Below are positions 9,166 to 57,934 of a stretch of DNA of 64,000 bases, one piece after another. The stretch lies in the IMG/VR virus record IMGVR_UViG_3300028888_000001; one strand, given 5' to 3'. Source of the stretch: a virus. Its lineage: Duplodnaviria; Caudoviricetes. The notes under the pieces are model-generated. The model ran no database searches and was not told the DNA's origin. It saw only the letters and a program-made list of their open reading frames with translations. Within the stretch, counting starts at the first letter, position 1, and each line of letters starts with the position of its first letter. Position numbers and translations under genes: made by a program.

Positions 9166-9221
9166 TATATAGGGGAGCGGATTAAATCCGCTCCCTTAAT
9201 TTTTAAGAGGGGAAGAACAAG

Positions 9222-9959
9222 ATGAAACTTAACAAAGCGTACTCAATATTTGAGTCAAATAATTCGCTTATGTTTAACAATATAGTGTCGAAGCCATACG
9301 CTGATCTCATGATAAAATATGAACCAGAAACAGTGTATCGTATTAGAAAGCATGATAGTGCTGTAAGCGTTCTTGAGAAGCGTTACACAACAGATTGGAC
9401 GTATGAATTTGTAGCAACTAAAGAAATACAGAGAGAAGATCTTCATAACGATGAGAACTATATTTTTGTCGATAATGAAATCGTCTATTCTGGTGTTGTA
9501 GCAACAAATATACCATCGAAAAACGCAATGGACAAAATATCAGCATTTGTTTCAGATCCGGAGTTTGATTTCGCTGATCTGATTACATGTAAATCTGCTG
9601 AGGAATATGCTGAAGTCTCTAGATGGCTTGAGTATGATTATTCTTTCCATATTACTGAGGCTGTAGTCGTAAGGGAAGAAAATAAAATCTTAAAAGATTT
9701 ACGCTTACAGCAGATCAATATTCCATATATAAGTCATACTGAAATCGGCGATATGGTATTTGTTGAGTTCAAGCTTAATGATGATACAATCATCACAGGC
9801 GAACGTCTTAGGCAATTCAGGAAAATCGCCAATAAAGCAATATCAGCGTTGTTTAACAAAGTATTCAATACTAGAGCTGTTAGCTTTAGAATATTCTCAA
9901 CAAATGAACCGTATAAAACACCGGCTGTAGTACAAGACAACAAGAAATATATGCACTAA
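9222..9959 (+). CDS. hypothetical protein
   Basis: 245-aa ORF, GAGGGG RBS; terminator at 9976-10012. Confidence 0.75.
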   Translation: MKLNKAYSIFESNNSLMFNNIVSKPYADLMIKYEPETVYRIRKHDSAVSVLEKRYTTDWTYEFVATKEIQREDLHNDENYIFVDNEIVYSGVVATNIPSKNAMDKISAFVSDPEFDFADLITCKSAEEYAEVSRWLEYDYSFHITEAVVVREENKILKDLRLQQINIPYISHTEIGDMVFVEFKLNDDTIITGERLRQFRKIANKAISALFNKVFNTRAVSFRIFSTNEPYKTPAVVQDNKKYMH

Positions 9960-10011: not shown

Positions 10012-10857
10012 TTATCCACAGATATAGTCCATAATGAGATTATCAACATAATCTTCTAATTGTAATTTGAATCTATCACCAAAAGCGTTGGTAAGAACAA
10101 CGTATTTACCATTTTCTGAGAGAGTGATCTTATCTGCAATTTTATTAAATGTTTCTAATACAGCACTAATGTTGGCAGACTCTCTCTGTAATTTATTAAG
10201 AACCATCTGCGCATCAGAACCGGTAAGATTAATAATTCTTCCAGTTTCGTTGTATTTAGTAAAATCCTCATGCTTAACCGTATTAGGATCAATATCACAA
10301 GACAGAGCAGATTCAGAAATAATTTTAGTCGTATATGCGGGGGAGTGGGAGGGGAAGATTACCTGGTCGTATGTAATAATTCGTACTCCTCGGACGTATG
10401 CTTTCCCATTTACGTTCTCGATAGCTCCAAGAGCACGTAGAGAGAATGCTGGTTTTGCACCATCTCTAAGTTCCTGATCAACAAAATTTCCATATTCGTT
10501 TAAGGTTCCTTTATATTGACCCTTGACTAAATTGCCTTCTACCCAAATTTTTAAGAAAGACACACAGGCTAATTTCTTATCAATAGTCTGCTGTCTTACT
10601 AAATCATCCGATAGTGGATGAGACATCTCTCCGTACATCTGTCCGGCTTTAATGAGTTCTTTAAGCCTAGCCCCATTAATTTCTGGCTCTATATCTTTCT
10701 TAGCATAGATACGATGATTTCTATTTTCAACTTCAAGATCTTGAAGTGTGGCTTCAGCTATTACTCTTTTAGAAGTAGATCCACTGATAATCATCGTATC
10801 TTCCGCAGAGTGGTCGATTCCTTCAAGAATAATACTACCAATAACGTTATCATTCAT
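10012..10857 (-). CDS. prohead core protease (T4 gp21-like)
   Basis: ENRNHRIY, MYGEMSHP, AFSLRALG, TYDQVIFPSH motifs; late promoter AACA-TTAACA-TA at 10924-10913. Confidence 0.88.
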   Translation of the reverse strand: MNDNVIGSIILEGIDHSAEDTMIISGSTSKRVIAEATLQDLEVENRNHRIYAKKDIEPEINGARLKELIKAGQMYGEMSHPLSDDLVRQQTIDKKLACVSFLKIWVEGNLVKGQYKGTLNEYGNFVDQELRDGAKPAFSLRALGAIENVNGKAYVRGVRIITYDQVIFPSHSPAYTTKIISESALSCDIDPNTVKHEDFTKYNETGRIINLTGSDAQMVLNKLQRESANISAVLETFNKIADKITLSENGKYVVLTNAFGDRFKLQLEDYVDNLIMDYICG

Positions 10858-11043
10858 AAGGATTAAAATCTCCTTTCGCTTTAATTTTAATGAAATTTTG
10901 TTTTAAAAATATTATGTTAATGTTCTGGGTTATTGAATAGATAATCAAGCTTAGGATGCAAATTATTTTTTAATTATATATTATAATTATGAAAGCATAC
11001 AGTAAAGCTTTCAAAAATATTTTATTTAAAGGAGAATAGAAAT

Positions 11044-35494: not shown

Positions 35495-35581
35495 TGGTTT
35501 AATTATATATTATAATTATAGAATACTAGAGGCAGTGATGCCTCTAGTATATCAATTTGAAAAGAAAGGAGATCAAAATAA

Positions 35582-35614
35582 ATGGATGAACAAGGCATAG
35601 GCTTTGGAGATTAA
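35582..35614 (+). CDS. 10-aa micropeptide MDEQGIGFGD
   Basis: Early motif at 35503, hairpin 35523-35550, AGAAAGGAG RBS, terminator 35628-35656. Confidence 0.5.
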   Translation: MDEQGIGFGD

Positions 35615-35675
35615 TCAAAGCTAATTAAACGAGTAGGGCAATTCGCCCTACTCGTTATCCATGTAAATTTATTTT

Positions 35676-42084: not shown

Positions 42085-42399
42085 ATGAAAATGAAAGTGG
42101 GAGTAGAAGTCGATAGCAAAATTATGCAGCAGCTACAGACAGATGATACATTCAAAAAAAATAGTCAAAAGGTCTTTGATAAATTATTGGATTGTGCAGA
42201 AGCCGCAGAAACGGATGAAAAACAAAAACAACGACTTGTTGAATTTGTCAGAAGGCAATTCTTCGACGAGCTTGATTTCATGTCCAGACTTAACGGGCTC
42301 CACTTCTTGATGAACCACGAACAGTTTATACGCTGTTTAAAAATTGGGTTCGAAATAGACGCTAAGTCTATTATCAATCAGATTAACCAGAATAAATAA
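42085..42399 (+). CDS. early hypothetical protein
   Basis: GAGGAG RBS; terminator at 42443-42487. Confidence 0.7.
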   Translation: MKMKVGVEVDSKIMQQLQTDDTFKKNSQKVFDKLLDCAEAAETDEKQKQRLVEFVRRQFFDELDFMSRLNGLHFLMNHEQFIRCLKIGFEIDAKSIINQINQNK

Positions 42400-42537
42400 T
42401 GTGCACATTATCCACCTTCAAGCCTGATCAATTTGAGGGTGGGAGAGACCAAGCTAAGCGCGCAGCTTGGTCTCTTTTATTTTTTTATATAATTGCTCGA
42501 CATTTGAGTAATTTGCATATATGGAGGTTATAATATT

Positions 42538-43923
42538 ATGGCCAGAAAATATCATTGCATGTATTGCAATCAGTTGTTTGAACGACCTAAATTAATACAA
42601 CACATTGAAAAGAAACATAGAGAAATGATACCTCAGGGGTATACAGCAGCAAGACTGGTATTTGATAAAATAAACAACACCACTGGAGGTAAATGTAGAG
42701 TATGCGGTAGTCCAACAAATTGGGATGAGAATCTTAATAAGTATAGTGTACTATGCGATAACCCAAAGTGTAAAGAAGAATTAAGAAATAGATATAAACA
42801 AAATATGCTTCGTGTTAGAGGTACTTATAATATTCTTAACGATCCAGAGCAACAGAAGCTTATGCTCTCCCATAGAAAAATTTCTGGTACATATCATCAT
42901 TCAGATGGTGGTGAGATTGGCTATACTGGAGAGTATGAGCGTAAAGCTCTTGAATTTATGGATGTATTTATGAGAATACCATCCAAAGACATTATATCAC
43001 CAGGTCCAACTATGGAATACACCTATAAGGGCAAAAAGCATATTTATATTCCAGATTTTATATATTTACCATATAACCTCATAATAGAGATTAAAGATGG
43101 TGGAGAAAATCTTAATAATAAACAATCTCAATCTATGATTGAATCTAGAGAAAAAACTATAGAAAAAGAACGCTTGATTACCGATAAAGGTCAATACAAT
43201 TATATCAGACTTACAGATAATCAATTCGTTCAGCTAGTAGAAGTCTTCATGGAGATTAAAGAGAAGCTTCTAAATGAAGATGACTCTAAAACAGTTAAAG
43301 TTAATGAAGCAGCGATACATGTACCAGATCAAGTCAATGATTATTTTATTTCTAAAGGCACTTATTCAGAATTTCAGTTTATCCTAGAGATGAATAATGA
43401 TTTTTGTACGACTAAAAAATACGCTGATATATCACCTAATGACGTTATAAAATACAAAACTCTCACTCCAAAACAGTTTGAAAAATATGGCTATGGGGTT
43501 TGTTATGATTATGTATGCTCTGAAGATTTTTGGTTTAGAACTAAAATTTCAGATGTAAGACATGAAACCTGGTATACTATAATGCAGGATGATACAAACT
43601 ACACAGAGACGCATACATATTTAATATTTGAGTATAAATCAAAGTGGTATTGGTTTGAAGCAGCATGGGAAGAATATGCTGGCGTTAGAGGATTCAATTC
43701 TAAAGCAGACTGCGTTAAATATGTAGAGTATCTATTCGCAAAGAGATTTAAAAACCCATCTGTGTTTGCTACAAAGTATGATGCATCTGATAAGCATCTA
43801 ATGGAAATTACTTTAAATCAATTCAATGATTACATGACAGCTCGGATGAGCCATAAAAACAAAGTTAAATGGGAAGATGGCAAGAATATTAAATATATAT
43901 TTAAACAAACTCCTAACAATTAA
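42538..43923 (+). CDS. zinc fingers plus PD-(D/E)XK nuclease (TnsA/T4 gp4-like) fused to a transglutaminase/papain-like domain
   Basis: CMYC..HIEKKH, CRVC..CDNPKC; YIPDF...IIEIKD; GVCYD...HTYL...WYWFE; late motif at 42499. Confidence 0.65.
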   Translation: MARKYHCMYCNQLFERPKLIQHIEKKHREMIPQGYTAARLVFDKINNTTGGKCRVCGSPTNWDENLNKYSVLCDNPKCKEELRNRYKQNMLRVRGTYNILNDPEQQKLMLSHRKISGTYHHSDGGEIGYTGEYERKALEFMDVFMRIPSKDIISPGPTMEYTYKGKKHIYIPDFIYLPYNLIIEIKDGGENLNNKQSQSMIESREKTIEKERLITDKGQYNYIRLTDNQFVQLVEVFMEIKEKLLNEDDSKTVKVNEAAIHVPDQVNDYFISKGTYSEFQFILEMNNDFCTTKKYADISPNDVIKYKTLTPKQFEKYGYGVCYDYVCSEDFWFRTKISDVRHETWYTIMQDDTNYTETHTYLIFEYKSKWYWFEAAWEEYAGVRGFNSKADCVKYVEYLFAKRFKNPSVFATKYDASDKHLMEITLNQFNDYMTARMSHKNKVKWEDGKNIKYIFKQTPNN

Positions 43924-43925
43924 GT

Positions 43926-44090
43926 AAACCCAGATTGAATAATCGATCTGTTCACATATGTTCTTCATGGCTGAGTGTTTAGACCATTCTTGTAGGGCGA
44001 AGTTTGTTTCTAAACATAAAGCACCTCCTTCAACTGATAAAGATAGAAGCAAGAGACTCTAGGGAGTTTTCCCTAGAGTCTCTCTTCTTG
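43926..44090 (+). ncRNA. candidate late sRNA with anti-SD/anti-AUG module
   Basis: Late motif 43915-43926; 5' hairpin CAGATTGA/TCGATCTG; CAT-AAAG-CACCTCCTT at 44015-44030; terminator 44053-44082. Confidence 0.55.
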
Positions 44091-44134
44091 TTGTAACACT
44101 TAATTAAATAAAAAAGCGAAAGGGGGCTATAATT

Positions 44135-44554
44135 ATGTATATTCCTAGATGGAAAAGGCTTATATACTTTAGAAGATTTGCGTTATTTTTGTTGATAGCC
44201 GCCATCATCGCAGTAACGGGCATACATTTTTTAAAAGAAAAAGAAGATAACCATACTATAGAGCGAATGAATATCAAAGCGATTGAATATAAAACTGGCG
44301 GTCCACTTATATTATACGATGAAAATGATAATATTATAGGTTTTTATTTAAATGAGATATCTATACTCTATAATGAATATTTTGAGGAAATACCACTTGG
44401 GATTTTTTCTTGTAAATATAATCAAAATAATAAAAGTTTAGAAATTTATAATTTTGACTATGAATATTTTGGTGAAATAATGATTGATGATAATAATATA
44501 GAATTACAAAATATGTTTCAGGATTCTATAATGGTAGTTTACGATAATTTATAA
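44135..44554 (+). CDS. late protein with a single N-terminal transmembrane helix
   Basis: RRFALFLLIAAIIAVTGIHFL; late motif at 44095. Confidence 0.7.
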   Translation: MYIPRWKRLIYFRRFALFLLIAAIIAVTGIHFLKEKEDNHTIERMNIKAIEYKTGGPLILYDENDNIIGFYLNEISILYNEYFEEIPLGIFSCKYNQNNKSLEIYNFDYEYFGEIMIDDNNIELQNMFQDSIMVVYDNL

Positions 44555-44679
44555 TCCTATAGGGAGTAATCCCTATAGGAGTAAATTGTGATTTAATTAT
44601 ATATTATATATGTGATTGTAACAAAACAATCTGAAACGATAAATCTTGCTTAAATATATTTATAGGAGGTAAAAAACAA

Positions 44680-45837
44680 ATGAAGAAAAAACGCCCAGCA
44701 ACATGTACTTTAGACGAATATCAAGTCGAGGAGATTAAAAATCTCTTATCACTTGGTAAGAAAGAACGAGACATTGCAACTATCTATAAATGCAAGGTAG
44801 GAGACATCTATAAGATCAAGCAAGAAATGAATGACCAGCAAGCTGAACAGCAGAAAAATACTGTAGAAGTTGGAATCGTTAATATCGATGATCTTATTCC
44901 GCTTCCAGTAAAAGAAGAAACAACAAGCGATGACACTTCAAAAGAAGAAGAAACTAAAATTAAGAGAAAGCGCATAACCGCAGCAGAGAAAGAGTCAATT
45001 TGTAAAGATCTGCGTAAAGGTATAACTGCCGCTGTTATAGCGGAAAAGTATAATATCTCTACGTCATCTGTATTCAGAATAAAATCTGAGTATAAAATGG
45101 CGTATGCTAAAACTCTTAAAGAATCATCAGTTAAGCAACAGCAGTTGTTTGATCCCAATAAGCTGGTTAGGATACAAAACGGATCGTATGTGAAACTTGG
45201 GTTAGTTGCCGATAGACACGATATTAGACCAGTAGACACATACATTTTCGAAACGTTTGATCCTGATCTCATGTTTAATTATGAGAAACAAGACCAGATG
45301 GCGAAAGAAGTGCTACTGAAAAAGATTCCATTTAGCTATGGGAAGCCATTAAAAGGCTTAATGCTTTACGTAACAGGCTTACAGTCAGCTCTTGTTTCCG
45401 TTATCAAAGCTTGCCAGGAGTTAAAAATTCCACTTATAGTGATGCACCATAATTCTGATGATGATAGCTATATGCCTCAGTATTATACAGACGACAATAA
45501 GGAAGATATCGTTTCAAAAATACCGGCAGTGCTTGAAAATTATATAAAGCGTGTGAGAACAGTACAGCTGTATAATTGCAGAGCAGAAGACCTGGTGGAA
45601 GCGAAAGAATTATTTGAAATTCGGGAGTGTACATATGATGCTCTTCCCGGAAGCATAACCAGGCAGGTAATTGCAACTGACACTATTATCTTTATCAACA
45701 AATTTGCAGCTTGGGAGTATTTTAGATTGAAAGCTGAAGAGGCTGAACCAAAAAAATCAGTATTTATTAACACAGCTTGCATTGACGATAAAGGTAGATT
45801 CAGTTCTGGCAAAAGCATTGCTAGAATAACAAATTGA
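44680..45837 (+). CDS. early protein with two HTH domains and an alpha/beta C-terminal domain
   Basis: GKKERDIATIYKCKVGDIYKIK and GITAAVIAEKYNISTSSVFRIK; early motif at 44597. Confidence 0.7.
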   Translation: MKKKRPATCTLDEYQVEEIKNLLSLGKKERDIATIYKCKVGDIYKIKQEMNDQQAEQQKNTVEVGIVNIDDLIPLPVKEETTSDDTSKEEETKIKRKRITAAEKESICKDLRKGITAAVIAEKYNISTSSVFRIKSEYKMAYAKTLKESSVKQQQLFDPNKLVRIQNGSYVKLGLVADRHDIRPVDTYIFETFDPDLMFNYEKQDQMAKEVLLKKIPFSYGKPLKGLMLYVTGLQSALVSVIKACQELKIPLIVMHHNSDDDSYMPQYYTDDNKEDIVSKIPAVLENYIKRVRTVQLYNCRAEDLVEAKELFEIRECTYDALPGSITRQVIATDTIIFINKFAAWEYFRLKAEEAEPKKSVFINTACIDDKGRFSSGKSIARITN

Positions 45838-45888
45838 AAAGACAACTCCAGAGGTCACAAGACCTCTGGAGTAATTTGTTATTATTTT

Positions 45889-46596
45889 TTATTTTACAAA
45901 ATCATAGAATTGTTCTATGACCATTTCTTTAGTAATTTGTTTCTTGTTCATGCTCTTAAACAGCTCTATATATTTAGACTTAGAAAAGTCTGCTTTAGAT
46001 ACAAGAGACTGAAGTGCTGAATGAGTTGTGCTTAAAGGTTTACCATTCTTTTCTGCGATCTTGACGATTAGATCGTCTGCTCTGTATTTCTTATTTGTCC
46101 ATGGCTTAATAGATGCCAGAGAAACAATAGCTTTATAACCATATGTATTTGGGTTTATACCCCAATTATCTAACTCTTCAGAGATAATATCTTCCGCAGT
46201 CAGGTTATCAATTTCTTCTTCATCCATATCATATAGATCTTCTACTGTTGGTGGTTCTACTTTATTGGATTCTCTAATACTCTGTTTCGTTTTAGCATCC
46301 TGCTCAGCAGATTGATCTGTGAAAGCTCCAACAGCAGACGGCGATGCTCCAGAACCAACCATAGCGACGAATTTGTTAATCACGTTGACACAATCAAGAG
46401 ACCTAGAGACATAATTCGCTCTTGCTTGCTCATCTAATTTGTTATCCATAATAATCTTCAAGAAATCGTTAGTATGGATAACAATATTGCAGAATTGCTT
46501 AAGCAATTCATCCGGTGCATTATTCTTCAGGTAATTGATTAAAATATTTCTGAGATTAGCATCTTCATTGGTATTCTGTGTAGTGTTGTCCGGCAT
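45889..46596 (-). CDS. Spo0A C-terminal effector-domain-like protein lacking a receiver domain
   Basis: LDNWGINPNTYGYKAI...LIVKIAEKNGKPLSTTHSALQSLV...QITKEMVI aligns by eye with Spo0A_C (IHEIGVPAHIKGYLYL...[24 protein letters not shown]...KPTNSEFI); late motif at 46646. Confidence 0.6.
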   Translation of the reverse strand: MPDNTTQNTNEDANLRNILINYLKNNAPDELLKQFCNIVIHTNDFLKIIMDNKLDEQARANYVSRSLDCVNVINKFVAMVGSGASPSAVGAFTDQSAEQDAKTKQSIRESNKVEPPTVEDLYDMDEEEIDNLTAEDIISEELDNWGINPNTYGYKAIVSLASIKPWTNKKYRADDLIVKIAEKNGKPLSTTHSALQSLVSKADFSKSKYIELFKSMNKKQITKEMVIEQFYDFVK

Positions 46597-46736
46597 TGTG
46601 ATTCCCTCCTGAAATATAGTAATTAACAGATTTTTATTTTTTTGTTATTGAGCATATTAATTTATACAGAAAGATAATTATTTAGCCCAAGACATTTGAG
46701 TAATCTATTAATTTCTCAGGAGGTTTAAATTGTATT

Positions 46737-48266
46737 ATGGGAGATAATAATTCTGAAGAATATATCGATCTTAGTTATCTGCTAGACGATGATGATGAAA
46801 TAGATGATAATTTCTTTTCAACTTCAAATCCGTCTGGAGAGACATATTATAATGATAATAGGCAAACATACGATATCTTCGTTGATGAAAAATTAAAAGA
46901 ATATAATACATATCTCTATCAAGATGACGAACCCTCTTCAGTAGAACCATTATCAGAAGTCGGATCTGTTTCTTATGGTGGTAACACTGGAGATTCTGGT
47001 ATTAATTTCAAGCAAGAGAAAAAGAGAGAATCTAAAGAAATTACTAATAAAGATGATCTAAAAGAAATACTCTCTATCACTCATGATAAAGCAGCACAGA
47101 AAATTACTATAATGGATTACTTCGGAGACTTTGGCGATGGTCCAAGATTTCAACCATACTGGATATTAAAAGTGCCAGCAAATACATATGGCGGTTATTC
47201 TAAAATCAATAAAGAAAATACGACATCGAAACGAACTAACAAAACGCCATTTACTACCACCATAGGCTTATGGATTTTCAACAAGATGTTTATAGAGCCT
47301 ATGTCAGATGTCTTAGGATATGTGAATACTCCAATAACTGCAGGTACGTATAAAGATATAAATCAAAAAGTGACATATGCTTTAATTGAAGATAAAATTA
47401 CAATAAGGCAATTAAAAGATTTTATATCTCAATCTCAGATATTGATGTCATGCTGTTCTGCATTGTCTTCATCGCATACTAATGCTATATTTACGATAGA
47501 AGAGAAAATATCTAAAAAGAAAGAAGAGCTAAAGAAAAAATACGGCGATAAGTTATCAAGTGATAACCCAGATCTAGATACAGCGTCTAAGTATGAAAAA
47601 GAATTGATAGATTATGCTAAAGATTTATTGAAAAACGATCCAGCGTCTGATATGTTTGAGTCTGGTGCTCGTTCATCTTGGGGTAATAATTTTAAAAATA
47701 TGTATTTAACCAGAGGCCCATTAAGACGTACAGATGGGTCTTATTCTTTTTCTTCTGAATCTTATATCGAAGGACTTGATCCTAAAGATTATGTTGCTGT
47801 ATCGGATGCTGCTGTACAGGGACCATTTGCTAGATCTCGTTTGACTGCAACTGGTGGCTATTCAGAAAAGCAGTTTACTAATGCTACACAACATATTAAA
47901 GTTCTTCCCAAAGGCTCGGATTGCAAAACTAAACGATACATTGAAGTTAATCTCACTAAATTAAATATAAAAGATTGGTATTATTCATTTATGATTGGTT
48001 CATCTGGAAATTTGATAGAATTAACTCCAGAGGTAGCGTCTAAATATATCGGTAAAAAAGTAAAAATGCGTTTTTCAGCGTTATGTCATTCTAAAAACGG
48101 CATTTGTGAAGCATGTGCTGGATCATTATTTAACCGTATAGGTATAAATAATATAGGAATGGCCAGCATGATTATGATGTCTAGTGTAAAAAATAAGAGC
48201 ATGGCGCAGTTCCACGATTCCACGCTTAATCTAGCTCATATAGATCCAGAAAAAATATTTTACTAA
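46737..48266 (+). CDS. rpoC: RNA polymerase beta' C-terminal half (probably virion RNAP)
   Basis: TTTIG, SGARSS, SYIEGL, TATGGY, DCKT, RFSALC...ICEACAG, QFH; late motif at 46691. Confidence 0.88.
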   Translation: MGDNNSEEYIDLSYLLDDDDEIDDNFFSTSNPSGETYYNDNRQTYDIFVDEKLKEYNTYLYQDDEPSSVEPLSEVGSVSYGGNTGDSGINFKQEKKRESKEITNKDDLKEILSITHDKAAQKITIMDYFGDFGDGPRFQPYWILKVPANTYGGYSKINKENTTSKRTNKTPFTTTIGLWIFNKMFIEPMSDVLGYVNTPITAGTYKDINQKVTYALIEDKITIRQLKDFISQSQILMSCCSALSSSHTNAIFTIEEKISKKKEELKKKYGDKLSSDNPDLDTASKYEKELIDYAKDLLKNDPASDMFESGARSSWGNNFKNMYLTRGPLRRTDGSYSFSSESYIEGLDPKDYVAVSDAAVQGPFARSRLTATGGYSEKQFTNATQHIKVLPKGSDCKTKRYIEVNLTKLNIKDWYYSFMIGSSGNLIELTPEVASKYIGKKVKMRFSALCHSKNGICEACAGSLFNRIGINNIGMASMIMMSSVKNKSMAQFHDSTLNLAHIDPEKIFY

Positions 48267-48288
48267 ATATTATATTTAAGGAGAAAAA

Positions 48289-49455
48289 ATGAATAATATA
48301 AAATATAATTTCAAAAACGGAGATATTATCGATTCTAATAATTTTGGTAAATTTGAATTTTTAGAAGAGTTTACTAAGATAATAAATGGTAAAAAAGTTA
48401 GATTTGGAAGAGTGAAATTTTTAAATACTGGAACTATAGTTGAATCTAGAATAGTAGAAATAGCATGTGGTAGAGTTAAAGATCCATATGCTCTAACAAT
48501 ATCTGGTGTTGGTTATTTGGGTAATTCATCAAATAAAAAATACACTAAAAGAGAATATGACATGTGGCGTAATATGATATTACGCTGCTATGATAAAAAC
48601 AGCTGTATGTATAAATTTTATGGCGCTTTAGGTATAACTGTCTGCGAACGCTGGCATTGTTTTGAGTATTTCTTGGATGATTTACCAACACTATATGGAT
48701 ATGATAAATACCTTGAAGATAATACCTATCAATTAGATAAAGACTTTTTACAAAAAGATTTACCGGCTAATATGAAAATATATTCTCCTAGCACGTGTAT
48801 ATTTTTAAATCATGATACAAATGCACGAATAGGCTCATACTCAAAATACTGCAATGACAAAACAAGTGATTATCGTGGGGTATATAAACTTTCAAATGGA
48901 AATTTTCAATGTAGAGTCCAAATAAACGGTACTGATTATTTTCTTGGCACATATATGGATGAAATAGCAGCAGCTAATATGTATAATTATGCCATAGTTG
49001 GTATAGAAGATGAATCAACTGTCATAAACGATGTACCGTTTATGACATTACAAGAATGCTTAGAATATAAAACAAGAAATCAACCTATAAAAATGCCGCC
49101 TAATGCAAATTATGATGAAATAGAAAAGTATAATAGTAACGCTAATTTTAAAGGAGTTTTTAAACATAGGAATTGTTTTATAGCTAATTTTAGTACTAAT
49201 GGAAATCAAACACGTATAGGTGCTTTTGATGATAAAATTGCAGCTGCTAATGCATATAATTATTACGTATCCAGATACAGTAATATGGAAACTCATAAGT
49301 TAAATGATGTACCATATATGTCTGTAGATGAGTGGATTCATCATAAACACTATGCTAAAAATAATAAGCCGGTATTAATGACAGAAAGCACTTTAGAACC
49401 AGAAAATGAACGTAAAAATAGATGTTTATCTATTTATGGTATAGAATTCTATTAA
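48289..49455 (+). CDS. free-standing HNH-type homing endonuclease with two AP2 domains
   Basis: WRNMILRCY, YGALGITVCERW, LDKD, YSPSTC; two (Y/F)xGV...G..D..AAA..YN repeats. Confidence 0.8.
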   Translation: MNNIKYNFKNGDIIDSNNFGKFEFLEEFTKIINGKKVRFGRVKFLNTGTIVESRIVEIACGRVKDPYALTISGVGYLGNSSNKKYTKREYDMWRNMILRCYDKNSCMYKFYGALGITVCERWHCFEYFLDDLPTLYGYDKYLEDNTYQLDKDFLQKDLPANMKIYSPSTCIFLNHDTNARIGSYSKYCNDKTSDYRGVYKLSNGNFQCRVQINGTDYFLGTYMDEIAAANMYNYAIVGIEDESTVINDVPFMTLQECLEYKTRNQPIKMPPNANYDEIEKYNSNANFKGVFKHRNCFIANFSTNGNQTRIGAFDDKIAAANAYNYYVSRYSNMETHKLNDVPYMSVDEWIHHKHYAKNNKPVLMTESTLEPENERKNRCLSIYGIEFY

Positions 49456-49503
49456 TAAATAAACCCATAGGGATTGCTCCCTATGGGTTGCTTGTTTGTC
49501 TTT

Positions 49504-49881
49504 TTATCTAAGAGCTATTCTTAAATGCTCATCATCAAAGTTTTTAAATATATATCTAAACCAATGCCCATGCTTATTTTGAAATTTTTCAATTTTCTTT
49601 TGATCTTCTGGTAATGCTATTAATACAGATTTTACATTATGCATATTAAATCTCACATCTTTTACAAGCTGATCAATTAATTCCATACCACTCGCATAAC
49701 CATATCCGTTTAGATTATAATCAACAAATAATATATCTGTATGATTGGTTAATTTAGAACGTACGTCTAATATATCATCAGATATCTCAAAATAGTTTAC
49801 TTGATTTGGATAAATTGTATTTATGCTACGGGTTATTTTATCACATAATTGCCCATGGCTAGAAACAATTAATATATCCAT
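49504..49881 (-). CDS. stand-alone response-regulator receiver (pseudo-receiver) domain
   Basis: ILIV start, DILFVDYNL...SGMELI, IFKNF; acidic pocket replaced by SSH; late motif at 49943. Confidence 0.65.
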   Translation of the reverse strand: MDILIVSSHGQLCDKITRSINTIYPNQVNYFEISDDILDVRSKLTNHTDILFVDYNLNGYGYASGMELIDQLVKDVRFNMHNVKSVLIALPEDQKKIEKFQNKHGHWFRYIFKNFDDEHLRIALR

Positions 49882-49984
49882 AAATATATCCCTCCGTTAT
49901 TAGTTTTTTATAACCATCATAACGTTGGCTATATATTTATGTTACCAAGATACAAGAGGGCGGATTTCTCCGCCCACTTGAATA

Positions 49985-51655
49985 TTATTTTTGCTGATTA
50001 TTATTCTGAGCTTGATCAGTTGCACCTTGCGGATTATTACCAGCTTCTTCTTTATTATTCTCATCTTGTTTAGGTGAGGTTCCATCATATGATTTTACGT
50101 GAGCTGTAACCATATCCATGAAATCTTTACTAATCTGCTGAATAGCCGTAAGCTTACCGGTACAAAACGCTCTACAAACATCGATCCATTTTTTAGTGAT
50201 ATTATTCATATCCTGATCGGCTGTTTTAACTTTCTCTTTTTTCTGTTCTTTATCTTTTGAGCCGTTGCCATCAGAATCACCATCTGCTGTATTTGTAATA
50301 GTAACGCCAGAAGCATCAGCTGGTTTATCATTATCATCTCCGCCTTTTTCATCGGCCTCATTCAAGCTAATCCAATCACTTGAGGAATCATAATATGCTG
50401 ACTCCTGAGTATTTATTTGACCACCAGTACTACCGGTGTCGCCGTTATCAGTATTTTGTCCAGTTGCTGGTTTAGCAGCAGATTGTGCTGTGGGATTTTC
50501 TGTTTGATTAGTTTGAGTCTTTTCTCCGTTCTCTCTATTGACTTCATTGATAGCGTTAATAATTGCATTTCTAGATTGGCCTAGATTTGCTCTATCACGT
50601 TTAACGACATTAGCAAGATTCTGATAATTATATAACCAATCATAAATAGTTTGCATTTTTATTCCATAATTTGAAAGCTTAACGGTACTTTCAACTGGAT
50701 TATTTAGATCGGTTACGCCCATGAAAAACTTTTTAAAATCTTTAGCGACATCATCGCCTTCATTATATTGGAAATTCTTACCAGACATGAAAATATCCAA
50801 TATAGGCTTATAACCATCGGCTCTAAGGGCGTCAGCGTGGGCCTCATAATTAAATGGTATCATTTGAATATTTTGGCATCTGGACATCCCTTCAGCATAA
50901 TCACCGGTATACGTTATCTGAATTGTATCTTTGGGCTCTTTATTAAGAATAATATCTTTATATTTTTCTAGATATTTTCTTTTAGAATTTGAGATATTAT
51001 CTATAGCTTTCCAGAATCTATCTAAGATTTTATCCACAAACTGCATGAATCCATCGAATTTTTTAGCTACTGTATCTCTAAGCTGCTCAGCCTCATTCAA
51101 CACCTGAACAGATTCATTGATTCTATTAAAGATAAAATCTTTAATGATAAATTCGTTATCTATACAATCGGACAAATACTGTTCATAAGCTTCAGAATAT
51201 AGATAAGAATCATCGTCCATAGAATAAATATGACTCTCCATCTTATTCATTATAGGATCACCAGACTGATTAACTTTTAAATCAGTAGATGTATCAGGAC
51301 CGTCTGCATCGCCAGTTGGTAGTTTGGTATCTTCAGCACCATCTTCTCTCTTGAAGTAATAGTCTTTAGCTTTAATACCTCCAAGGCGTTGCTGTCTTGT
51401 AGCTCTAGTTATAGATTTTCTAATCTCAGTGGCGCCCATCTTTAAAATAGGCCCAGCTGCAATTTCATCTTTGCCATCTACTATATTTTTTGCGTAATCT
51501 ACTTCTGAACTGCTATGATCGTGGGTGCTTTGCCCTTGTTGTTCTCCGCTATCTATCGCTCCAGATGCTAAGTCATCACCTTCAGAAATCAGATCTAATG
51601 AAGCTTTTGCTCCTTCACTAAATCCAGATTCCAAATAATCAATATCGAGAATCAC
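49985..51655 (-). CDS. internal head protein paralogue
   Basis: GGAGG with GTG 51655; LNE-A site, amphipathic helix, YLEKYK motif. Confidence 0.65.
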   Translation of the reverse strand: MILDIDYLESGFSEGAKASLDLISEGDDLASGAIDSGEQQGQSTHDHSSSEVDYAKNIVDGKDEIAAGPILKMGATEIRKSITRATRQQRLGGIKAKDYYFKREDGAEDTKLPTGDADGPDTSTDLKVNQSGDPIMNKMESHIYSMDDDSYLYSEAYEQYLSDCIDNEFIIKDFIFNRINESVQVLNEAEQLRDTVAKKFDGFMQFVDKILDRFWKAIDNISNSKRKYLEKYKDIILNKEPKDTIQITYTGDYAEGMSRCQNIQMIPFNYEAHADALRADGYKPILDIFMSGKNFQYNEGDDVAKDFKKFFMGVTDLNNPVESTVKLSNYGIKMQTIYDWLYNYQNLANVVKRDRANLGQSRNAIINAINEVNRENGEKTQTNQTENPTAQSAAKPATGQNTDNGDTGSTGGQINTQESAYYDSSSDWISLNEADEKGGDDNDKPADASGVTITNTADGDSDGNGSKDKEQKKEKVKTADQDMNNITKKWIDVCRAFCTGKLTAIQQISKDFMDMVTAHVKSYDGTSPKQDENNKEEAGNNPQGATDQAQNNNQQK

Positions 51656-51671
51656 ATTTATCCCTCCTTTA

Positions 51672-52817
51672 TTATTTTCTAGCATCATAATATGAAGTTG
51701 GATTATCTAATACTTGTATTGCGTCATACAAACAAGTTCTATATTGCATATACATGTCTTTGATAGCATCCATCTTTGCTGTCATAGCCATGATAATAAT
51801 GTCGGTGTATTTATGCATTTGATCTACTTTTGCTTTGCAGTAAATATCTAAGTTTAGCATCATATCTGACGACATCATCATACCTGATTTGTCAACGTCT
51901 TTTCCATCGATCTTCTCAAGACCAATATCTCCAGGCAGAAGAGATGTAAAAGCTCCGATAGTGAGACCATTGTTATTCTTAGATATAGTAGAAATCTTCT
52001 TAAGAATACCATTAAGAGAATCCTCAATAATCTTATAGTCTTCCTTAAGAGATTTCTTAAATTCATCAAAGCCGAACCATACTTCAGCCATCTTCTTAAT
52101 ATCAGTCTCACATATATCTAACTCTTCAAAGCCATTATTGTTTCTATAAATTAAATATAGCTTACGTGCGAATTCTTGTTCAGAGATATTCTCATCATTT
52201 ATATTAAGAATATGAGCCCTAAACTTCTTATAGTCTTCCTCTAATCTTGAAGTTGGTACAGTATTATGAATGCTATCTGCATTTAGATCTGTAATTTGAG
52301 GATTGTATAAATCGTCAAATAAAGAAGCATTAAAATCATCCAGAGCTCTAATATTGGGGATAGAGCTGTCTATAGTAAATCTGTTAAGCTCTCTATCATC
52401 GCATTGATAAGTTTTCAGCTCTTCCAGTAAAGCTTTCTTATGCTCTGTGATAACTTTATTCTCTTTAATAAAACTCTCCATTGTAGAGCAAAAACTATCT
52501 ATCTTATCTTTAATAAATTTAAGAGCTTTCTGTACTATAGCATCAACTTGCACGTAATAATCTGTAAAGCTTTCTAATAGCATAGTATTAGACTCTGCTA
52601 CAGCCATGCTCTTGTATAGCTTAATTTTAGAATTAGTAAATGATTCGTTGACTTTCTTCAAAAATTGTATAGAGCTATAGAAATAGCTCTCATCCATATT
52701 TACCTTGGACAGAGCATCTAAACTTACAGTCTGCTGTTTATCTATTTCGTCCATGTCTAATATATCAAAACTAGCGCTTAATAAACTATTTGTTGGTACA
52801 AAACTATCCATGCTCAT
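51672..52817 (-). CDS. internal head protein paralogue
   Basis: Late motif at 52871; LLE-S site followed by amphipathic helix. Confidence 0.65.
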   Translation of the reverse strand: MSMDSFVPTNSLLSASFDILDMDEIDKQQTVSLDALSKVNMDESYFYSSIQFLKKVNESFTNSKIKLYKSMAVAESNTMLLESFTDYYVQVDAIVQKALKFIKDKIDSFCSTMESFIKENKVITEHKKALLEELKTYQCDDRELNRFTIDSSIPNIRALDDFNASLFDDLYNPQITDLNADSIHNTVPTSRLEEDYKKFRAHILNINDENISEQEFARKLYLIYRNNNGFEELDICETDIKKMAEVWFGFDEFKKSLKEDYKIIEDSLNGILKKISTISKNNNGLTIGAFTSLLPGDIGLEKIDGKDVDKSGMMMSSDMMLNLDIYCKAKVDQMHKYTDIIIMAMTAKMDAIKDMYMQYRTCLYDAIQVLDNPTSYYDARK

Positions 52818-52884
52818 GTAGGATTACTCCTTTCGATTTTATATATCAAATTAAACAATTATCAAGATGTCCGAGAAATATAAA

Positions 52885-52995
52885 CAAAAAATAATGGCCA
52901 AGGGATAACCCTTGGCCATATTTAGAGTGCATATCGCTAAAGTTACAAGTAAAGAAAACAACGACCAGTCCTAAATCCTAGCCATCGCCCTCTTT
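52885..52995 (-). ncRNA. candidate late sRNA (G-U-rich long hairpin plus terminator)
   Basis: Late motif 53006-52995; terminator 52893-52920 with T-tract; next gene has its own promoter. Confidence 0.5.
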
Positions 52996-53011
52996 ACAAT
53001 TATGTTAAAGT

Positions 53012-53120
53012 GAAAACCCCGGAGGCTATCAACCTCCGGGATGTTCAAAAGGAGAAACAAAGATGAAACTCAAACAAAACTATGATGTGAATCAAAGCGG
53101 GGTCCACCAATCTCCGCTTT
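53012..53120 (-). ncRNA. candidate late sRNA with anti-SD/anti-AUG seed
   Basis: TACA-TAAGAA-TA at 53131-53120; 5' hairpin AAAGCGG/CCGCTTT; U-rich seed CAUCUUUGUUUCUCCUUUU; terminator 53017-53041. Confidence 0.6.
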
Positions 53121-53152
53121 ATTCTTATGTACTATATAATGTAGAATTTTAT

Positions 53153-53434
53153 TTATTTTAACCTTCTTACAGTAATACGAACAGCATATGCTTCATTGTT
53201 TACTTTAACAATTTTTTCTTTGGCTACCCCATCAAAATTATAATTATTGTCATTATCAGAAAGATCCATAATATTATAATTAGGATCACTGCTTACGACA
53301 CCTCCTAGGGTATCTTCAAAATCAAAATCGGATGTTTCTGTTGTATCAATAGTTTCGCCTTTAGCGATAGATACATGATCTCCAACTTCACTTTCAGTAA
53401 AAACGCTTTGAACAATAGCATCGATATCAATCAT
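53153..53434 (-). CDS. small acidic late protein
   Basis: AAGGAGG RBS; FTE-S site. Confidence 0.7.
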   Translation of the reverse strand: MIDIDAIVQSVFTESEVGDHVSIAKGETIDTTETSDFDFEDTLGGVVSSDPNYNIMDLSDNDNNYNFDGVAKEKIVKVNNEAYAVRITVRRLK

Positions 53435-53449
53435 AATAATTTTCCTCCT

Positions 53450-55054
53450 TTAGATATTATCATACCTATTAAATCTATTACTTGTAAGTTTAGAATTTCC
53501 TATAGTATTAGACAGAATATCATATAGCATCTTATCAGCAAGATGCTTACATATATCTGGATCTGATACTCCTTTAGATAAGCTTGTAGCTTTAGCTATA
53601 TTATTCTCACAAGCTTTAATATCTTGCTGTATCATAGCTTTCATCTTAGGATCTAGACTCATTTTACCTAACTCAGCTTTCAGTAATTGAATCTGAGATA
53701 GCTGTAAAGATATACCTGTAGGGCTAGGATCGTAGATATTATTCAATATTTTAGCCGGTGCTGAAATAAGATCAAAAAGAATCCCTACAAATGGAGCTTT
53801 CTTAGTTAGCTTACTTATAGCAGAATTAGTTTTGACCTTATTAGCGTAGCTTATATAATCAGAACCATAGCCATACATCGTACAGAAAGCTGATGCCGAT
53901 TCTTCTTTATCATATCCTATAGGCATCATTATCCAAGTTAATGGATTTTTACTACGTCTAATAAACGACGTAAATGGTAAAAATAATTCAAGAGAAGCTT
54001 GCTTAATGAAGCTACTAATATTAAGAGCTTTATCTTTATTGCTCAAGCTCCAGGTTAGAAGAGAATCAAATGTATTAAGTACTGGAGCTCCTATCTTGTC
54101 TAATGCTACTTTAAGATATGAGAAGAATATATTAATTGGGGTATTAAAGCTTTCATTATTTTCATAGCCATATTGTAATTGGTCTATGGTGTTCTTATAC
54201 TCTTGTGATTGAGTAAAATCGGTTATAAATGGAAATGCCGTCATTCCCAATCCAGCAAGCTTAATGGATTTATTAATAAGCCCTACAATACCACCAGCTT
54301 TAATGAAATGCTCTTCATACTCTTTAGTACCAAATTCTTCTCTAGTTGGTAGCACTTTTGCATTTACAAGAGTCTGAACTGTATTATTATATTCTTCTTG
54401 GCTTATATTATCTGGCACTATTGCTTTCATAAAATTAGCAACAAACTCATCATAGTTTTGAGATAGAAGATTTATCTGATGATCTTTTATAGCTTTACCG
54501 ATGCCTTTAGCTTGGTTATAAGCATGCACAACAGAAGTTATAATATTGCATATGGAAGCAGCACCATATATATTATTTAATATAGCACTACCGCCATACA
54601 TACAAGCGTAAAAGCTATGGCCTATCTCACGTACTATAGCGGCCATTATTTCATCATTTGTAAATACTTCTGGATTGAATAATAGAGCTGAAGAAATATT
54701 TATAAGACAAATATAACCAGCCTCTTTATTAAACCTATATGTATTTTTATTGACAATGAAATTCTTGTCTTTATTGTTGGTAAAATTAAATCCGATTGGA
54801 ACTGTAATAACCCATGGGTCTATATCATAAACTATATTTAACGCAAAGCAGCCAAATCCATAAAAGTTTTCTATGTAACGATTAAACTTAATCATAGATT
54901 TATCTATATTTGCTTTAAAGACATCTGATGGATTATTAGCATATTTTAGTCTTATGACGCCTAAACATTCTTGAGCTTTATTTAATTCTGGAGATCTGCC
55001 AAAATAAAGCTCATTATATGGCATGAGCTTAGATACTATTTTATCCATTGGCAA
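53450..55054 (-). CDS. probable virion protein with degenerate zincin motif
   Basis: AAIVREIGH and EESASAF..MYGYG correspond to HEVGH and ELIADAF...GFG of 18644..19792. Confidence 0.6.
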   Translation of the reverse strand: MPMDKIVSKLMPYNELYFGRSPELNKAQECLGVIRLKYANNPSDVFKANIDKSMIKFNRYIENFYGFGCFALNIVYDIDPWVITVPIGFNFTNNKDKNFIVNKNTYRFNKEAGYICLINISSALLFNPEVFTNDEIMAAIVREIGHSFYACMYGGSAILNNIYGAASICNIITSVVHAYNQAKGIGKAIKDHQINLLSQNYDEFVANFMKAIVPDNISQEEYNNTVQTLVNAKVLPTREEFGTKEYEEHFIKAGGIVGLINKSIKLAGLGMTAFPFITDFTQSQEYKNTIDQLQYGYENNESFNTPINIFFSYLKVALDKIGAPVLNTFDSLLTWSLSNKDKALNISSFIKQASLELFLPFTSFIRRSKNPLTWIMMPIGYDKEESASAFCTMYGYGSDYISYANKVKTNSAISKLTKKAPFVGILFDLISAPAKILNNIYDPSPTGISLQLSQIQLLKAELGKMSLDPKMKAMIQQDIKACENNIAKATSLSKGVSDPDICKHLADKMLYDILSNTIGNSKLTSNRFNRYDNI

Positions 55055-55144
55055 TTTAAACCTCCTCTAGAGAATTAACTAAAAACACAGGGATGGCATT
55101 TAGCCATCCCTGTATCATATACAATATAACTCGCTAAAGGATAA

Positions 55145-55651
55145 TCAAAGATTACCAAAAATATCATTGAGCATGCCGTCGATATCAGCAGCTTCAGCGA
55201 CAGTGCGAGCCTTAATCTTAGCAGACTCTTGAAGCTTCTTAGCTCTAGCACGAGCTACAGACTCTTTATAGATCTTATTAATCTGGTTCTTGCTAGCGGC
55301 AATAACACGAGCTACAGACTCAGTATAGATACCACGAAGCTCATCAGAGGTAAGAACTGCACCTTCAGTAGCAGCAGCGGTTTCTGCACCAGCGCCAACA
55401 TGCGTCTGGATATCACCAAGCTGGGTATCGATAGAACCATCAGCCTTAACATCGCTCATCTCAACGCCCTGAGAATAGCAATCATCATCATATGTAAGCT
55501 TATCAGGATCGTTAGAAACATCTCCATCCTTAACAACGTCAGATGCGATGCTGGTATCTCCTACTCCCTGTGCATCTCCACCCATAGCGGAATCGATAAC
55601 ATCTTCAACATTATCTTCTGCACCTTCAAGAATACTTTCAAACCAATTCAT
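55145..55651 (-). CDS. acidic head/scaffold-like late protein
   Basis: Repeated ES/EG/EA sites (YTESVAR, YKESVAR); high-expression codons; terminator at 55088-55113. Confidence 0.65.
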   Translation of the reverse strand: MNWFESILEGAEDNVEDVIDSAMGGDAQGVGDTSIASDVVKDGDVSNDPDKLTYDDDCYSQGVEMSDVKADGSIDTQLGDIQTHVGAGAETAAATEGAVLTSDELRGIYTESVARVIAASKNQINKIYKESVARARAKKLQESAKIKARTVAEAADIDGMLNDIFGNL

Positions 55652-55675
55652 TATAAATGACCTCCTATTAAGATT

Positions 55676-56656
55676 TTACGAAATTTTCTGCAAGGCAGTG
55701 ATACATATTTGTTTAGCTTGAATATTCATTTTATCTAAATATTCAATCATAATACCAATAGCAGAAATAACATCATTTGTAGCCATCCTAGTATAATTGT
55801 TTAGCATGACACATTGATGTATTAGTGCTTTTGCATTATCTGTCTTGTAAGATTCGAATTTCTTTTTAAGTTTCTCTATTTCTTTTAACTCTACTGCAAG
55901 AGTCTTGGATGCTGATGAATTTAATTTCTTGATAATTGAAGATAGACCATCATATTGCTCAAGAAATTCAACTGCAGCATCTGTGTTGTATATGCGTTTT
56001 TTACGATCACCGAATAGAGCATCATTTAATGCTCTAGCGAAAGTGGTATCGGTAACATCAAGACGGTACCGATTATTGTAATTAAGCTTATCTAAGATTT
56101 TATTTCTTTGTCCAACAATCCAAGAACCATATACATCTAATTCACTGAGATTAAGCACTTGTTCAGCTCTGGTTAGATTCATGAGTCTTTCATAACAATC
56201 AATAACTTGATCATTAGCGAATCTTGCTGTTGTTTCAAGATTAAACATGTTGTCCATGCTATAACCATTATATTTAACATACTTGTCTCTATTAGATAAA
56301 GATATGATTCTAAGCTTATATTTCTTAAGAAACTCTTGATTATTAAGATAAATATCTCTGGCTGAAGCGATGAATTTTTTGGTAATCCCAAAAATGATTT
56401 CTAATACTCGCATTAGAAGCTTTGATAACGCAGACAATAATTTACGCACGCCAGAGAATAAATTTCTATCGCTAAATGCCCCTACAGTATCATCCTTGAA
56501 GTCGAATATATCATATTCAAGCATGATATGAGCATTGATAGTTTCGATAAAATTTCTCTGGCTTTCTGCATATAGTATTGCTGTATCTGTAGATAGATCA
56601 TATGGGGTCGCTTCAGTTGACTCATATAAAACTTTTATCTTTTGTTCTAAAGTCAA
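55676..56656 (-). CDS. internal head protein paralogue
   Basis: Late motif at 56695; GGAGG with TTG 56656; amphipathic helix and FLKKYK. Confidence 0.65.
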   Translation of the reverse strand: MTLEQKIKVLYESTEATPYDLSTDTAILYAESQRNFIETINAHIMLEYDIFDFKDDTVGAFSDRNLFSGVRKLLSALSKLLMRVLEIIFGITKKFIASARDIYLNNQEFLKKYKLRIISLSNRDKYVKYNGYSMDNMFNLETTARFANDQVIDCYERLMNLTRAEQVLNLSELDVYGSWIVGQRNKILDKLNYNNRYRLDVTDTTFARALNDALFGDRKKRIYNTDAAVEFLEQYDGLSSIIKKLNSSASKTLAVELKEIEKLKKKFESYKTDNAKALIHQCVMLNNYTRMATNDVISAIGIMIEYLDKMNIQAKQICITALQKIS

Positions 56657-56773
56657 CTTATAGATACCTCCTTTAATTTTTATTACCAAAATGTTTTGGT
56701 AAAATAAGGCTTAACCATATAAAAGCTAAGCCTTATAATAACTTAAAGGAGAGTTTAAAACCATGAGTATCTA

Positions 56774-57934
56774 TTAAGCAAACCTAATGGACTCAAGAAT
56801 GCTATTAAGATCCATATCATTAAACTTAGCAGATTCAGCAGCAGCGGCAGGTGCAGCAGCTCCACCATTATTGCCCTTTAAGGCATCTTTACCTCTTTGA
56901 ACAGCGCCATCTACTTTATCTTTAGCGTCATTAACGCGAGAAGCAAGTGCCTGCTTGCAGAGGGTTCTATTCTGTGCCATCTCGTTCTTAAGAGCATTAA
57001 TATATGCCGTGCAAAGTTCTTTACACATATCGGCAACGTACTTAACAAGATTTGCCTTAAGCTGCGGAGACTGAGTCTGCACGTTCACAGTTTTCTTAAA
57101 CTTATCGATAGCTGCAGTAGCTCTAGCTTGAATCTTCTCTGCGCCAGTTGTCTTTTTGCCAAATTCTTGAAGACCTTCGAATGCAACTTTTACTGTGCGT
57201 TCTATTGACTCTGTTCTTATTAATTTGTCAATGACAGACTTTGCGCTTTCTGCTCCAAAAAGCTCTTGAAGAAGATCTTTCTGAAGAGATTCTGCACTTG
57301 GATTAGAGCCAGCTTTAGCATCAATCAGCTTATCCATAGCGCTTTCGCAACCTTCGAGCTTGCCGATTGCTTTTTCAACTCCATCTTTATCGATAATAAC
57401 AGCTTCTTCAATTTTAAAGCTCTTATCTTTCATACCGAGCAGCGCAACTTTATATTTAGCGATGAATGCTTTATTAGCTACGTCAAAACTCTTGAACTTC
57501 TCAACTGCAGCTTTCCACAGTTTAAGAATGGTCTGCTTAATCTTCTCAAGAATCTCTTGGACTCTCTTGACGAAATTAGCACCAGCAGCCTTTGCTGCTT
57601 CTTTAGCTTCACCAGCTTTATTCTTAGCGGCGGCCATTGCATTGGAGGCTTTGTCTTTTAAAGACGCTTTCTCTGCAGCGCTGTCTCCATCTTCTTCGCC
57701 TTCTGCGGCTTCAGAGAAGTTAAGCAGCATACCGTACTTATCATAGTACTTAAGCTCAGCAATACCAACCTGCTCCATAAGAGCATTCCATGCCATCTCG
57801 GTTTCAGCAGCATAAATCATAGCTGCACCTTCACCGAAACCATATTCAGATGGAGCAACTTTCTCGCATTCTTCGTTAAACTTTCTAACGAGCATTTCCT
57901 CCTGAAGAGGATCGTTAATAGCAGTTTTAATCAT
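56774..57934 (-). CDS. abundant internal head protein paralogue
   Basis: FSE-A site, ILEKIKQTILKLW helix, FIAKYK; strong codon bias. Confidence 0.7.
   Translation of the reverse strand: MIKTAINDPLQEEMLVRKFNEECEKVAPSEYGFGEGAAMIYAAETEMAWNALMEQVGIAELKYYDKYGMLLNFSEAAEGEEDGDSAAEKASLKDKASNAMAAAKNKAGEAKEAAKAAGANFVKRVQEILEKIKQTILKLWKAAVEKFKSFDVANKAFIAKYKVALLGMKDKSFKIEEAVIIDKDGVEKAIGKLEGCESAMDKLIDAKAGSNPSAESLQKDLLQELFGAESAKSVIDKLIRTESIERTVKVAFEGLQEFGKKTTGAEKIQARATAAIDKFKKTVNVQTQSPQLKANLVKYVADMCKELCTAYINALKNEMAQNRTLCKQALASRVNDAKDKVDGAVQRGKDALKGNNGGAAAPAAAAESAKFNDMDLNSILESIRFA

Follow-up and report, generated by a model that had tools for sequence, protein, structure and literature searches.

Anti-ribosome-binding-site RNA modules in an AR9-like jumbo phage: a predicted cis arm and candidate late trans-acting small RNAs

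Background

How should one read short non-coding stretches in which the complement of a start codon (anti-AUG) and the complement of a Shine-Dalgarno sequence (SD; anti-SD) stand just 5' of a terminator hairpin? This question is raised by virus record IMGVR_UViG_3300028888_000001, of which we analysed a stretch of 64,000 nucleotides (nt), called here the window, the reverse complement of record positions 41541-105540. The record has 313,331 nt and 32.5% G+C, and the window is part of the 313 kb genome of an AR9-like jumbo phage. A first-pass annotation had described three such stretches as a single family of trans-acting antisense RNAs, deployed late in infection against early phage or host mRNAs. 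The explanation that we favour, with moderate confidence, is that RNA arms mask ribosome-binding sites (RBS) by base pairing and that the phage uses them in two ways, in cis and in trans. For positions outside the window we use window-frame offsets, to be subtracted from 105541 to obtain record positions; other sequences carry L numbers, and the syntenic loci covering the sites come from relatives at 75%, 69% and 53% protein identity.

Results

The three modules are present, at 44015-44030 on the plus strand (site 1) and at 53065-53049 and 56765-56746 on the minus strand (sites 2 and 3), each 5' of a hairpin and with module spacers of 7, 8 and 11 nt, respectively. In sense-strand intergenic segments the strict module was observed six times, compared with 0.49 in dinucleotide shuffles (maximum 3, n=300), and two of these six are not members, which leaves four true members; within the window it was observed four times for 0.17 expected from shuffles, and on coding strands once in about 270 kb, all these counts being subject to the caveat that any terminator-RBS-ATG junction gives the same pattern when read from the other strand.

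The motif ACA-N6-TA, which is the late promoter consensus of AR9 (PMC7598289), is also the late promoter of this phage, with 107 matches upstream of genes against 27-60 for other spacings. Sites 1 and 2 were correctly said to have their own copy of it ahead of a 5' hairpin (Table 1); both also have their own terminator and no open reading frame (ORF) in sense, an arrangement that is conserved in orthologs at the level of motifs. Among 15 units, which were partly chosen by eye, 10 carry a stable hairpin at most 3 nt from the predicted +1, compared with 6 of the 65 protein genes with a late motif, and the seeds are predicted to be unpaired at 0.6-0.99. The heptamer UUCACAU, also said to be shared, does occur in both window units but is missing from all orthologous units, and was ruled out as a mark of the family.

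Read from the opposite strand, the modules open frames of 12, 32 and 4 codons at sites 1, 2 and 3, as had been claimed, and the further claim that no promoter serves these frames is right for sites 2 and 3; at site 1, the late motif at 44138-44127 (minus strand) overlaps the start of the next gene. The opposite-strand peptides, of 3-32 amino acids (aa), are conserved neither in length nor in sequence, and in this respect, as in the missing promoter at sites 2 and 3, the loci resemble neither a type I toxin-antitoxin system nor a leader peptide. The modules themselves are conserved in relatives at orthologous loci. As they keep their positions, at 53-75% protein identity, while the letters of the spacers and the opposite-strand peptides turn over, we regard them as selected RNA features and not as micro-ORFs or relics.

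Site 3 does not belong with the others. It has no promoter of its own, it begins at the stop codon of a 386-aa gene, and its module is kept at the orthologous position in L008, L010 and L012. In folds of read-through RNA from the window, L008, L010, L012, L020 and L021, the arm covers the next gene's SD and spacer; the downstream SD is paired to its far upstream partner with a probability of 1.0 in five orthologs and 0.8 in one, against a background in which 10 of the 79 tandem junctions of this genome reach such far-partner SD pairing at 0.8 or more. This pairing in cis extends over lineages whose downstream proteins are as little as 25% identical. In L012 a perfect 12-bp helix is accompanied by 9 bp across the AUG, and the arm pairs with its own partner at -30 kcal/mol, compared with -17 to -21 kcal/mol when swapped. 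On the basis of these folds, site 3 very likely mutes the next gene in cis on read-through mRNA, so that the three sites do not form one trans-acting family. On RNA reading from the 386-aa gene into the 326-aa gene, the arm in the 3' untranslated region (UTR) would fold onto the downstream SD and spacer, and the 326-aa gene would then be translated mainly from its own late promoter, whose transcript has its 5' end between the two arms; opening of the helix by ribosomes that stop on the upstream gene is a further possibility. In the window, TTG is the start codon of the downstream gene, the anti-AUG is left in a loop and the arm pairs better with the start region of L008, where ATG is retained, which is why the anti-AUG here looks like an ancestral remnant. 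At the same start in L008 and L010 (L008:6237-6245, L010:6129-6137), the TTG of the 326-aa ortholog is overlapped by an ORF of two codons with an SD at the proper distance; this ORF is absent from the window.

Gene-less late-promoter units with exposed anti-RBS seeds exist as well, and they outnumber the three sites first listed. It is moderately probable that site 2, S5 and S6 are independent late trans-acting small RNAs (sRNAs). They would be late transcripts of about 110-190 nt, with a 5' hairpin at +1 and a terminator at the end, whose single-stranded U/C-rich seeds would cover the SD and AUG of particular mRNAs and block initiation in trans. The anti-SD of site 2 is predicted unpaired at 0.73 in the terminated RNA. 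At this locus the relatives carry none, one, two or three seeds, all different: a promoter and hairpin without seed in L008, a promoter, 5' hairpin and one seed in L007 and L012, two seeds in L010, and two tandem units with three seeds in L020. Directly 3' of site 2 lies a second tandem gene-less unit, S2b, which was not among the sites first listed; for this unit, slide +2 gave 100% of cells paired and six further pair types, in three sequences only.

S5, at -86.4 kb, is antisense to both neighbouring genes. The 19-nt anti-AUG/anti-SD seed of S6, at -6.7 kb, is identical in three phage types, in which the 5' stem is compensated and the flanks diverge; since S6 lies between convergent genes, it has no cis target. 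The module of S7, at -2.3 kb, is kept in relatives, and S7 was rejected as a cis arm, a role that holds only in this genome. Further observations concern orphan anti-AUG/anti-SD modules at S4 (-47307 to -47200) and S8 (-60790 to -60698), the latter right after a tRNA-like sequence, and a unit at -153738 to -153615 (L032) that has a late promoter, 5' hairpin and terminator and no anti-SD module. The stretch 42399-42435 was rejected as a module and is a hairpin arm; the region 42399-42483, upstream of the endonuclease gene, consists of two adjacent hairpins that are conserved in L010, with compensatory changes.

Site 1 is ambiguous, with the anatomy of the free sRNA units and a possible action in cis too. 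Its anti-SD is predicted unpaired at 0.91 in the terminated RNA, and the gene that follows has its own late motif (44096-44107). Promoter, anti-SD and a hairpin with the same G-rich loop are all kept in L010 and L012; the 6-nt loop motif (43995-44000) is invariant in the three sequences and the stems differ. In L012 a hairpin separates anti-AUG from anti-SD, and judging from the alignment the second anti-AUG box of the window (Table 1) is probably homologous in position to the anti-AUG of L012; in L008, promoter and module are lost together.

Table 1. Coordinates of the units, arms and candidate target regions (window positions unless stated otherwise)
Feature	Position	Strand	Remarks
Late promoter motif, site 1	43916..43927	+	predicted +1 = 43926; present in L010, L012 orthologs
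5' hairpin, site-1 RNA	43931..43950	+	predicted fold
Second anti-AUG box, 5' of central hairpin	43961..43969	+	alignment by eye
Central hairpin, site 1	43970..44022	+	predicted fold
Anti-AUG + anti-SD module, site 1	44015..44030	+	
Terminator-like hairpin closing site 1	44052..44083	+	predicted fold
Late promoter motif, site 2	53119..53130	-	predicted +1 = 53120; kept in L007, L008, L010, L012, L020
5' hairpin from predicted +1, site 2	53094..53120	-	predicted fold
U-rich seed, site 2	53045..53085	-	anti-AUG 53065-53063, anti-SD 53054-53049; 52% U
Terminator, site 2	53016..53042	-	U-tract on minus strand only
Tandem gene-less unit S2b	52894..53005	-	late motif 53005-52994, long 5' hairpin, variable tail, terminator 52919-52894
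Site-3 cis anti-RBS arm, 3' UTR of 386-aa gene	56743..56785	-	56751-56743 pairs 56668-56676; 56773-56767 pairs 56661-56667
Terminator-like hairpin inside site-3 helix	56704..56736	-	missing in L020, L021
Late promoter of 326-aa gene	56683..56694	-	between helix arms in all six lineages
SD, spacer, TTG start (56656) of 326-aa gene (site-3 cis target)	56650..56676	-	read-through fold
Start region, 245-aa gene (gene 9222)	9200..9245	+	best phage match of site-2 seed, -38 to -41 kcal/mol; lead only
Start region, 556-aa gene (gene 51655)	51625..51680	-	second-best site-2 seed match, -36 kcal/mol; lead only
Start region, head maturation protease	10825..10885	-	best match of L042 S6 ortholog; lead only
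Copies of 85-90-nt element	70918-71010, ~77780-77860 (window-frame); -190.8 kb, -167.3 kb, -161.4 kb, -21.2 kb		

Using the seeds of the free units, we ranked 231 phage start regions, and a wider pool of 380 that includes those of relatives. Among the 231 regions only the site-2 seed stood out, its match with gene 9222 at -38 kcal/mol falling within 2-5% of the null; most seeds stayed within the null, and for site 1 no target was found among the phage start regions ranked. For one L020 seed, pairing extends across 40 bp (-46 kcal/mol) at the start of the 386-aa gene's ortholog, which lies on the seed's own contig; this is the top match of the 380 start regions, 8 of which are L020's own; this pair alone gains from its own-genome location (8/380, by our estimate roughly p 0.06 over three seeds). 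Two further candidates were rejected, namely a 115-aa helix-turn-helix gene for S2b (z -5.2), whose match is not echoed by the tails of relatives, and gene 2929 for S6, whose start region is not conserved whereas the seed is. A comparison with pseudo-seeds suggested an excess of strong target matches, which disappeared against a strand-reversed control. As a side observation, the start of a 236-aa gene within the cluster of RNA polymerase genes (-40548; L146:380-1090, minus strand) is a top match of four different seeds (S4, L041 S7, L042 S7 and L010 site 2), a result that does not go beyond the control. The claim that the targets are early phage or host mRNAs is unsupported, because no target is established and late virion genes are among the best leads. 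The most plausible trans targets would be some of the phage's own mRNAs, with late genes as the best, unproven lead.

Other features of the genome and its relatives

The window endonuclease matches those of AR9, PBS1, phiR1-37 and staphylococcal jumbo phages, and the phage encodes RNA polymerase subunits, a dUTPase and DHFR. The close relatives, found in ENA and Joint Genome Institute assemblies, we take from the study names to come from rumen samples. The relatives recovered from IMG/VR were distant, and in them the units at sites 1-3 and the S6 seed were not found; a search of annotated phages with the units gave no match.

An 85-90-nt element flanked by inverted repeats occurs in six copies that are 97.6-100% identical and lie, in both orientations, where large paralogous and often divergent genes start (Table 1); it may mark invertible or shuffled gene cassettes. 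At L012:14567-14700 (minus strand) a 137-aa gene has a perfect promoter of the host sigma-A type, in the place of which the window and L010 have the phage late motif. Gaps resembling group I introns were seen at 25235-25805 of the window and at L027:4279-5484, one of these intron regions containing a TnpB gene.

Discussion

Several results weigh against masking in cis and in trans as we propose it. The orthologs are few and not independent, and the units were in part picked by eye. At site 3, partner-specific covariation of the two arms is clear for L012, L020 and L021, but in the other three of the six rows of the swap matrix (window, L008 and L010) the own partner is not the best one, and a strong terminator stands between the arms in four lineages. 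Among the trans leads, the match between S6 and the protease is strong only across genomes and weak with this genome's own S6, and the one between site 2 and gene 9222 lacks covariation: at that locus, seeds of the L010 type do not pair with the ortholog of the gene. Matches at z <= -4.4 were obtained for 5 of 22 seeds, and as the strand-reversed control gave 6 of 22, the set of trans targets is not significant. Finally, the S6 target pattern, sought in 301 Lachnospiraceae genomes, returned 23 unrelated genes, none of them recurrent.

A first alternative, which we consider possible though rather unlikely, is that the free units act in trans as sRNAs whose main targets are host mRNAs of defence or metabolism, or co-infecting relatives; it overlaps the trans part of our explanation and differs in the target alone. 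It would account for the lack of phage matches beyond the null for most seeds, a fast turnover of seeds would fit a changing host, and several seeds pair equally well or better with the start region of a relative than with their own. However, the host, probably one of the Lachnospiraceae, is indicated loosely, by a dUTPase about 50% identical to enzymes of that family, which is a weak pointer; the invariant S6 seed hit no recurrent host gene, and a plasmid search with the units gave chance matches only.

That all modules, sites 1 and 2 included, act only in cis on the next SD of read-through transcripts seems improbable. The anti-SD of site 1 does pair with the SD of gene 44135 in read-through folds (0.99-1.0 in the window, L010 and L012), as does that of site 2 with the next SD in the window (0.94), and site 3 provides an example of this mechanism in the same phage. 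Nevertheless, any anti-SD pairs in this way in read-through folds, the next-gene pairing of sites 1 and 2 ranks no higher than the best 15-60% of start regions, without a preference for own over swapped partners, and site 2 of L012 gives a next-SD pairing of 0.1. Moreover, the promoters and 5' hairpins would be pointless under cis action alone, S5 and S6 have no downstream gene on the same strand, and the stacked seeds differ from one another.

Generic decoys, which would imitate the tail of 16S rRNA or sequester an RNA-binding protein and have no specific mRNA target, are very unlikely. Site 1 contains what we take to be a 9-nt copy of the 16S 3' tail, besides its conserved G-rich loop, and the lack of a specific target would suit a decoy; against this, the anti-AUG is kept at SD-like spacing, the anti-SD of the invariant S6 seed is non-canonical, and the stacking of different seeds at one locus points to addressing. 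The notion that opposite-strand micro-ORFs or relics of deleted genes are the functional units is largely refuted and least probable of all, for although terminator-RBS-ATG is a normal gene junction and this genome has a candidate early micropeptide unit of like anatomy between convergent genes (35494-35676, with early promoter, 5' hairpin, RBS, 10-codon ORF and terminator), the peptides are unconserved, sites 2 and 3 have no promoter on that strand, a hairpin splits SD from AUG at site 1 of L012, and relics would not hold their geometry at such protein divergence.

Masking by RNA arms has known counterparts. In the T4 genes e, soc, 49 and I-TevI, the RBS is sequestered on long transcripts and freed by means of an internal late promoter (PMC3014915); likewise the site-3 helix covers the SD and start region on RNA initiated upstream, and a late promoter lies between the arms. 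Unlike in the T4 genes, the arms of site 3 are 60-100 nt apart, with a terminator enclosed in four of six lineages, and the upstream transcript is probably itself late, so that the helix may serve translational coupling or set the dosage of virion proteins, and not control timing.

The free units can be compared with RsaE and RoxS, the C-rich-seed sRNAs of Firmicutes (PMC6158497), in which one or sometimes two unpaired pyrimidine seeds per RNA are complementary to SD regions and likewise stand between 5' hairpin and terminator. They have no sequence relation to these RNAs, and membership of that family was excluded, with no match to the family model or any other in Rfam for the window, L020, L025 and L029; they differ also in being phage-encoded, with a promoter of the phage RNA polymerase, in including an anti-AUG and in the exchange of seeds between lineages. 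Phages of the same broad group are known to produce late transcripts that are gene-less or antisense, as illustrated by misc_1-10 of phiR1-37 (PMC4848604), the late antisense transcripts of AR9 (PMC5312081) and the non-coding RNAs of phiKZ (PMC13282480); in the portions of these papers compared here, such RNAs are mostly cis-antisense to genes, and neither an anti-RBS repertoire nor a validated target is described. PreS of lambda and VpdS of VP882 (PMC12197685) are phage-encoded base-pairing regulators that act in trans, but they are single Hfq-dependent RNAs of temperate proteobacterial phages, whereas the set found here is spread over several loci of a lytic jumbo phage. Within the limited library searched, no description of a late anti-RBS sRNA repertoire of this kind was found.

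Conclusions

How translation is tuned in jumbo phages with their own RNA polymerases is largely open, and no validated sRNA target appears for this phage group in the portions of the literature compared here. With a conserved set at several loci, whose promoters and seeds are defined, the question can be tested directly, and look-alike anti-RBS motifs need to be sorted into cis and trans before they are labelled as sRNAs. We tentatively propose that AR9-like jumbo phages may have a modular late-sRNA repertoire, possibly derived from cis arms like that of site 3, in which exchangeable and stackable anti-RBS seeds would be mounted on a constant chassis of late promoter, 5' hairpin and terminator, each seed directed at a single start region, be it in the phage itself, in its host or in a co-infecting relative. 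If this is true, such a repertoire would be a natural counterpart of programmable antisense oligomers.

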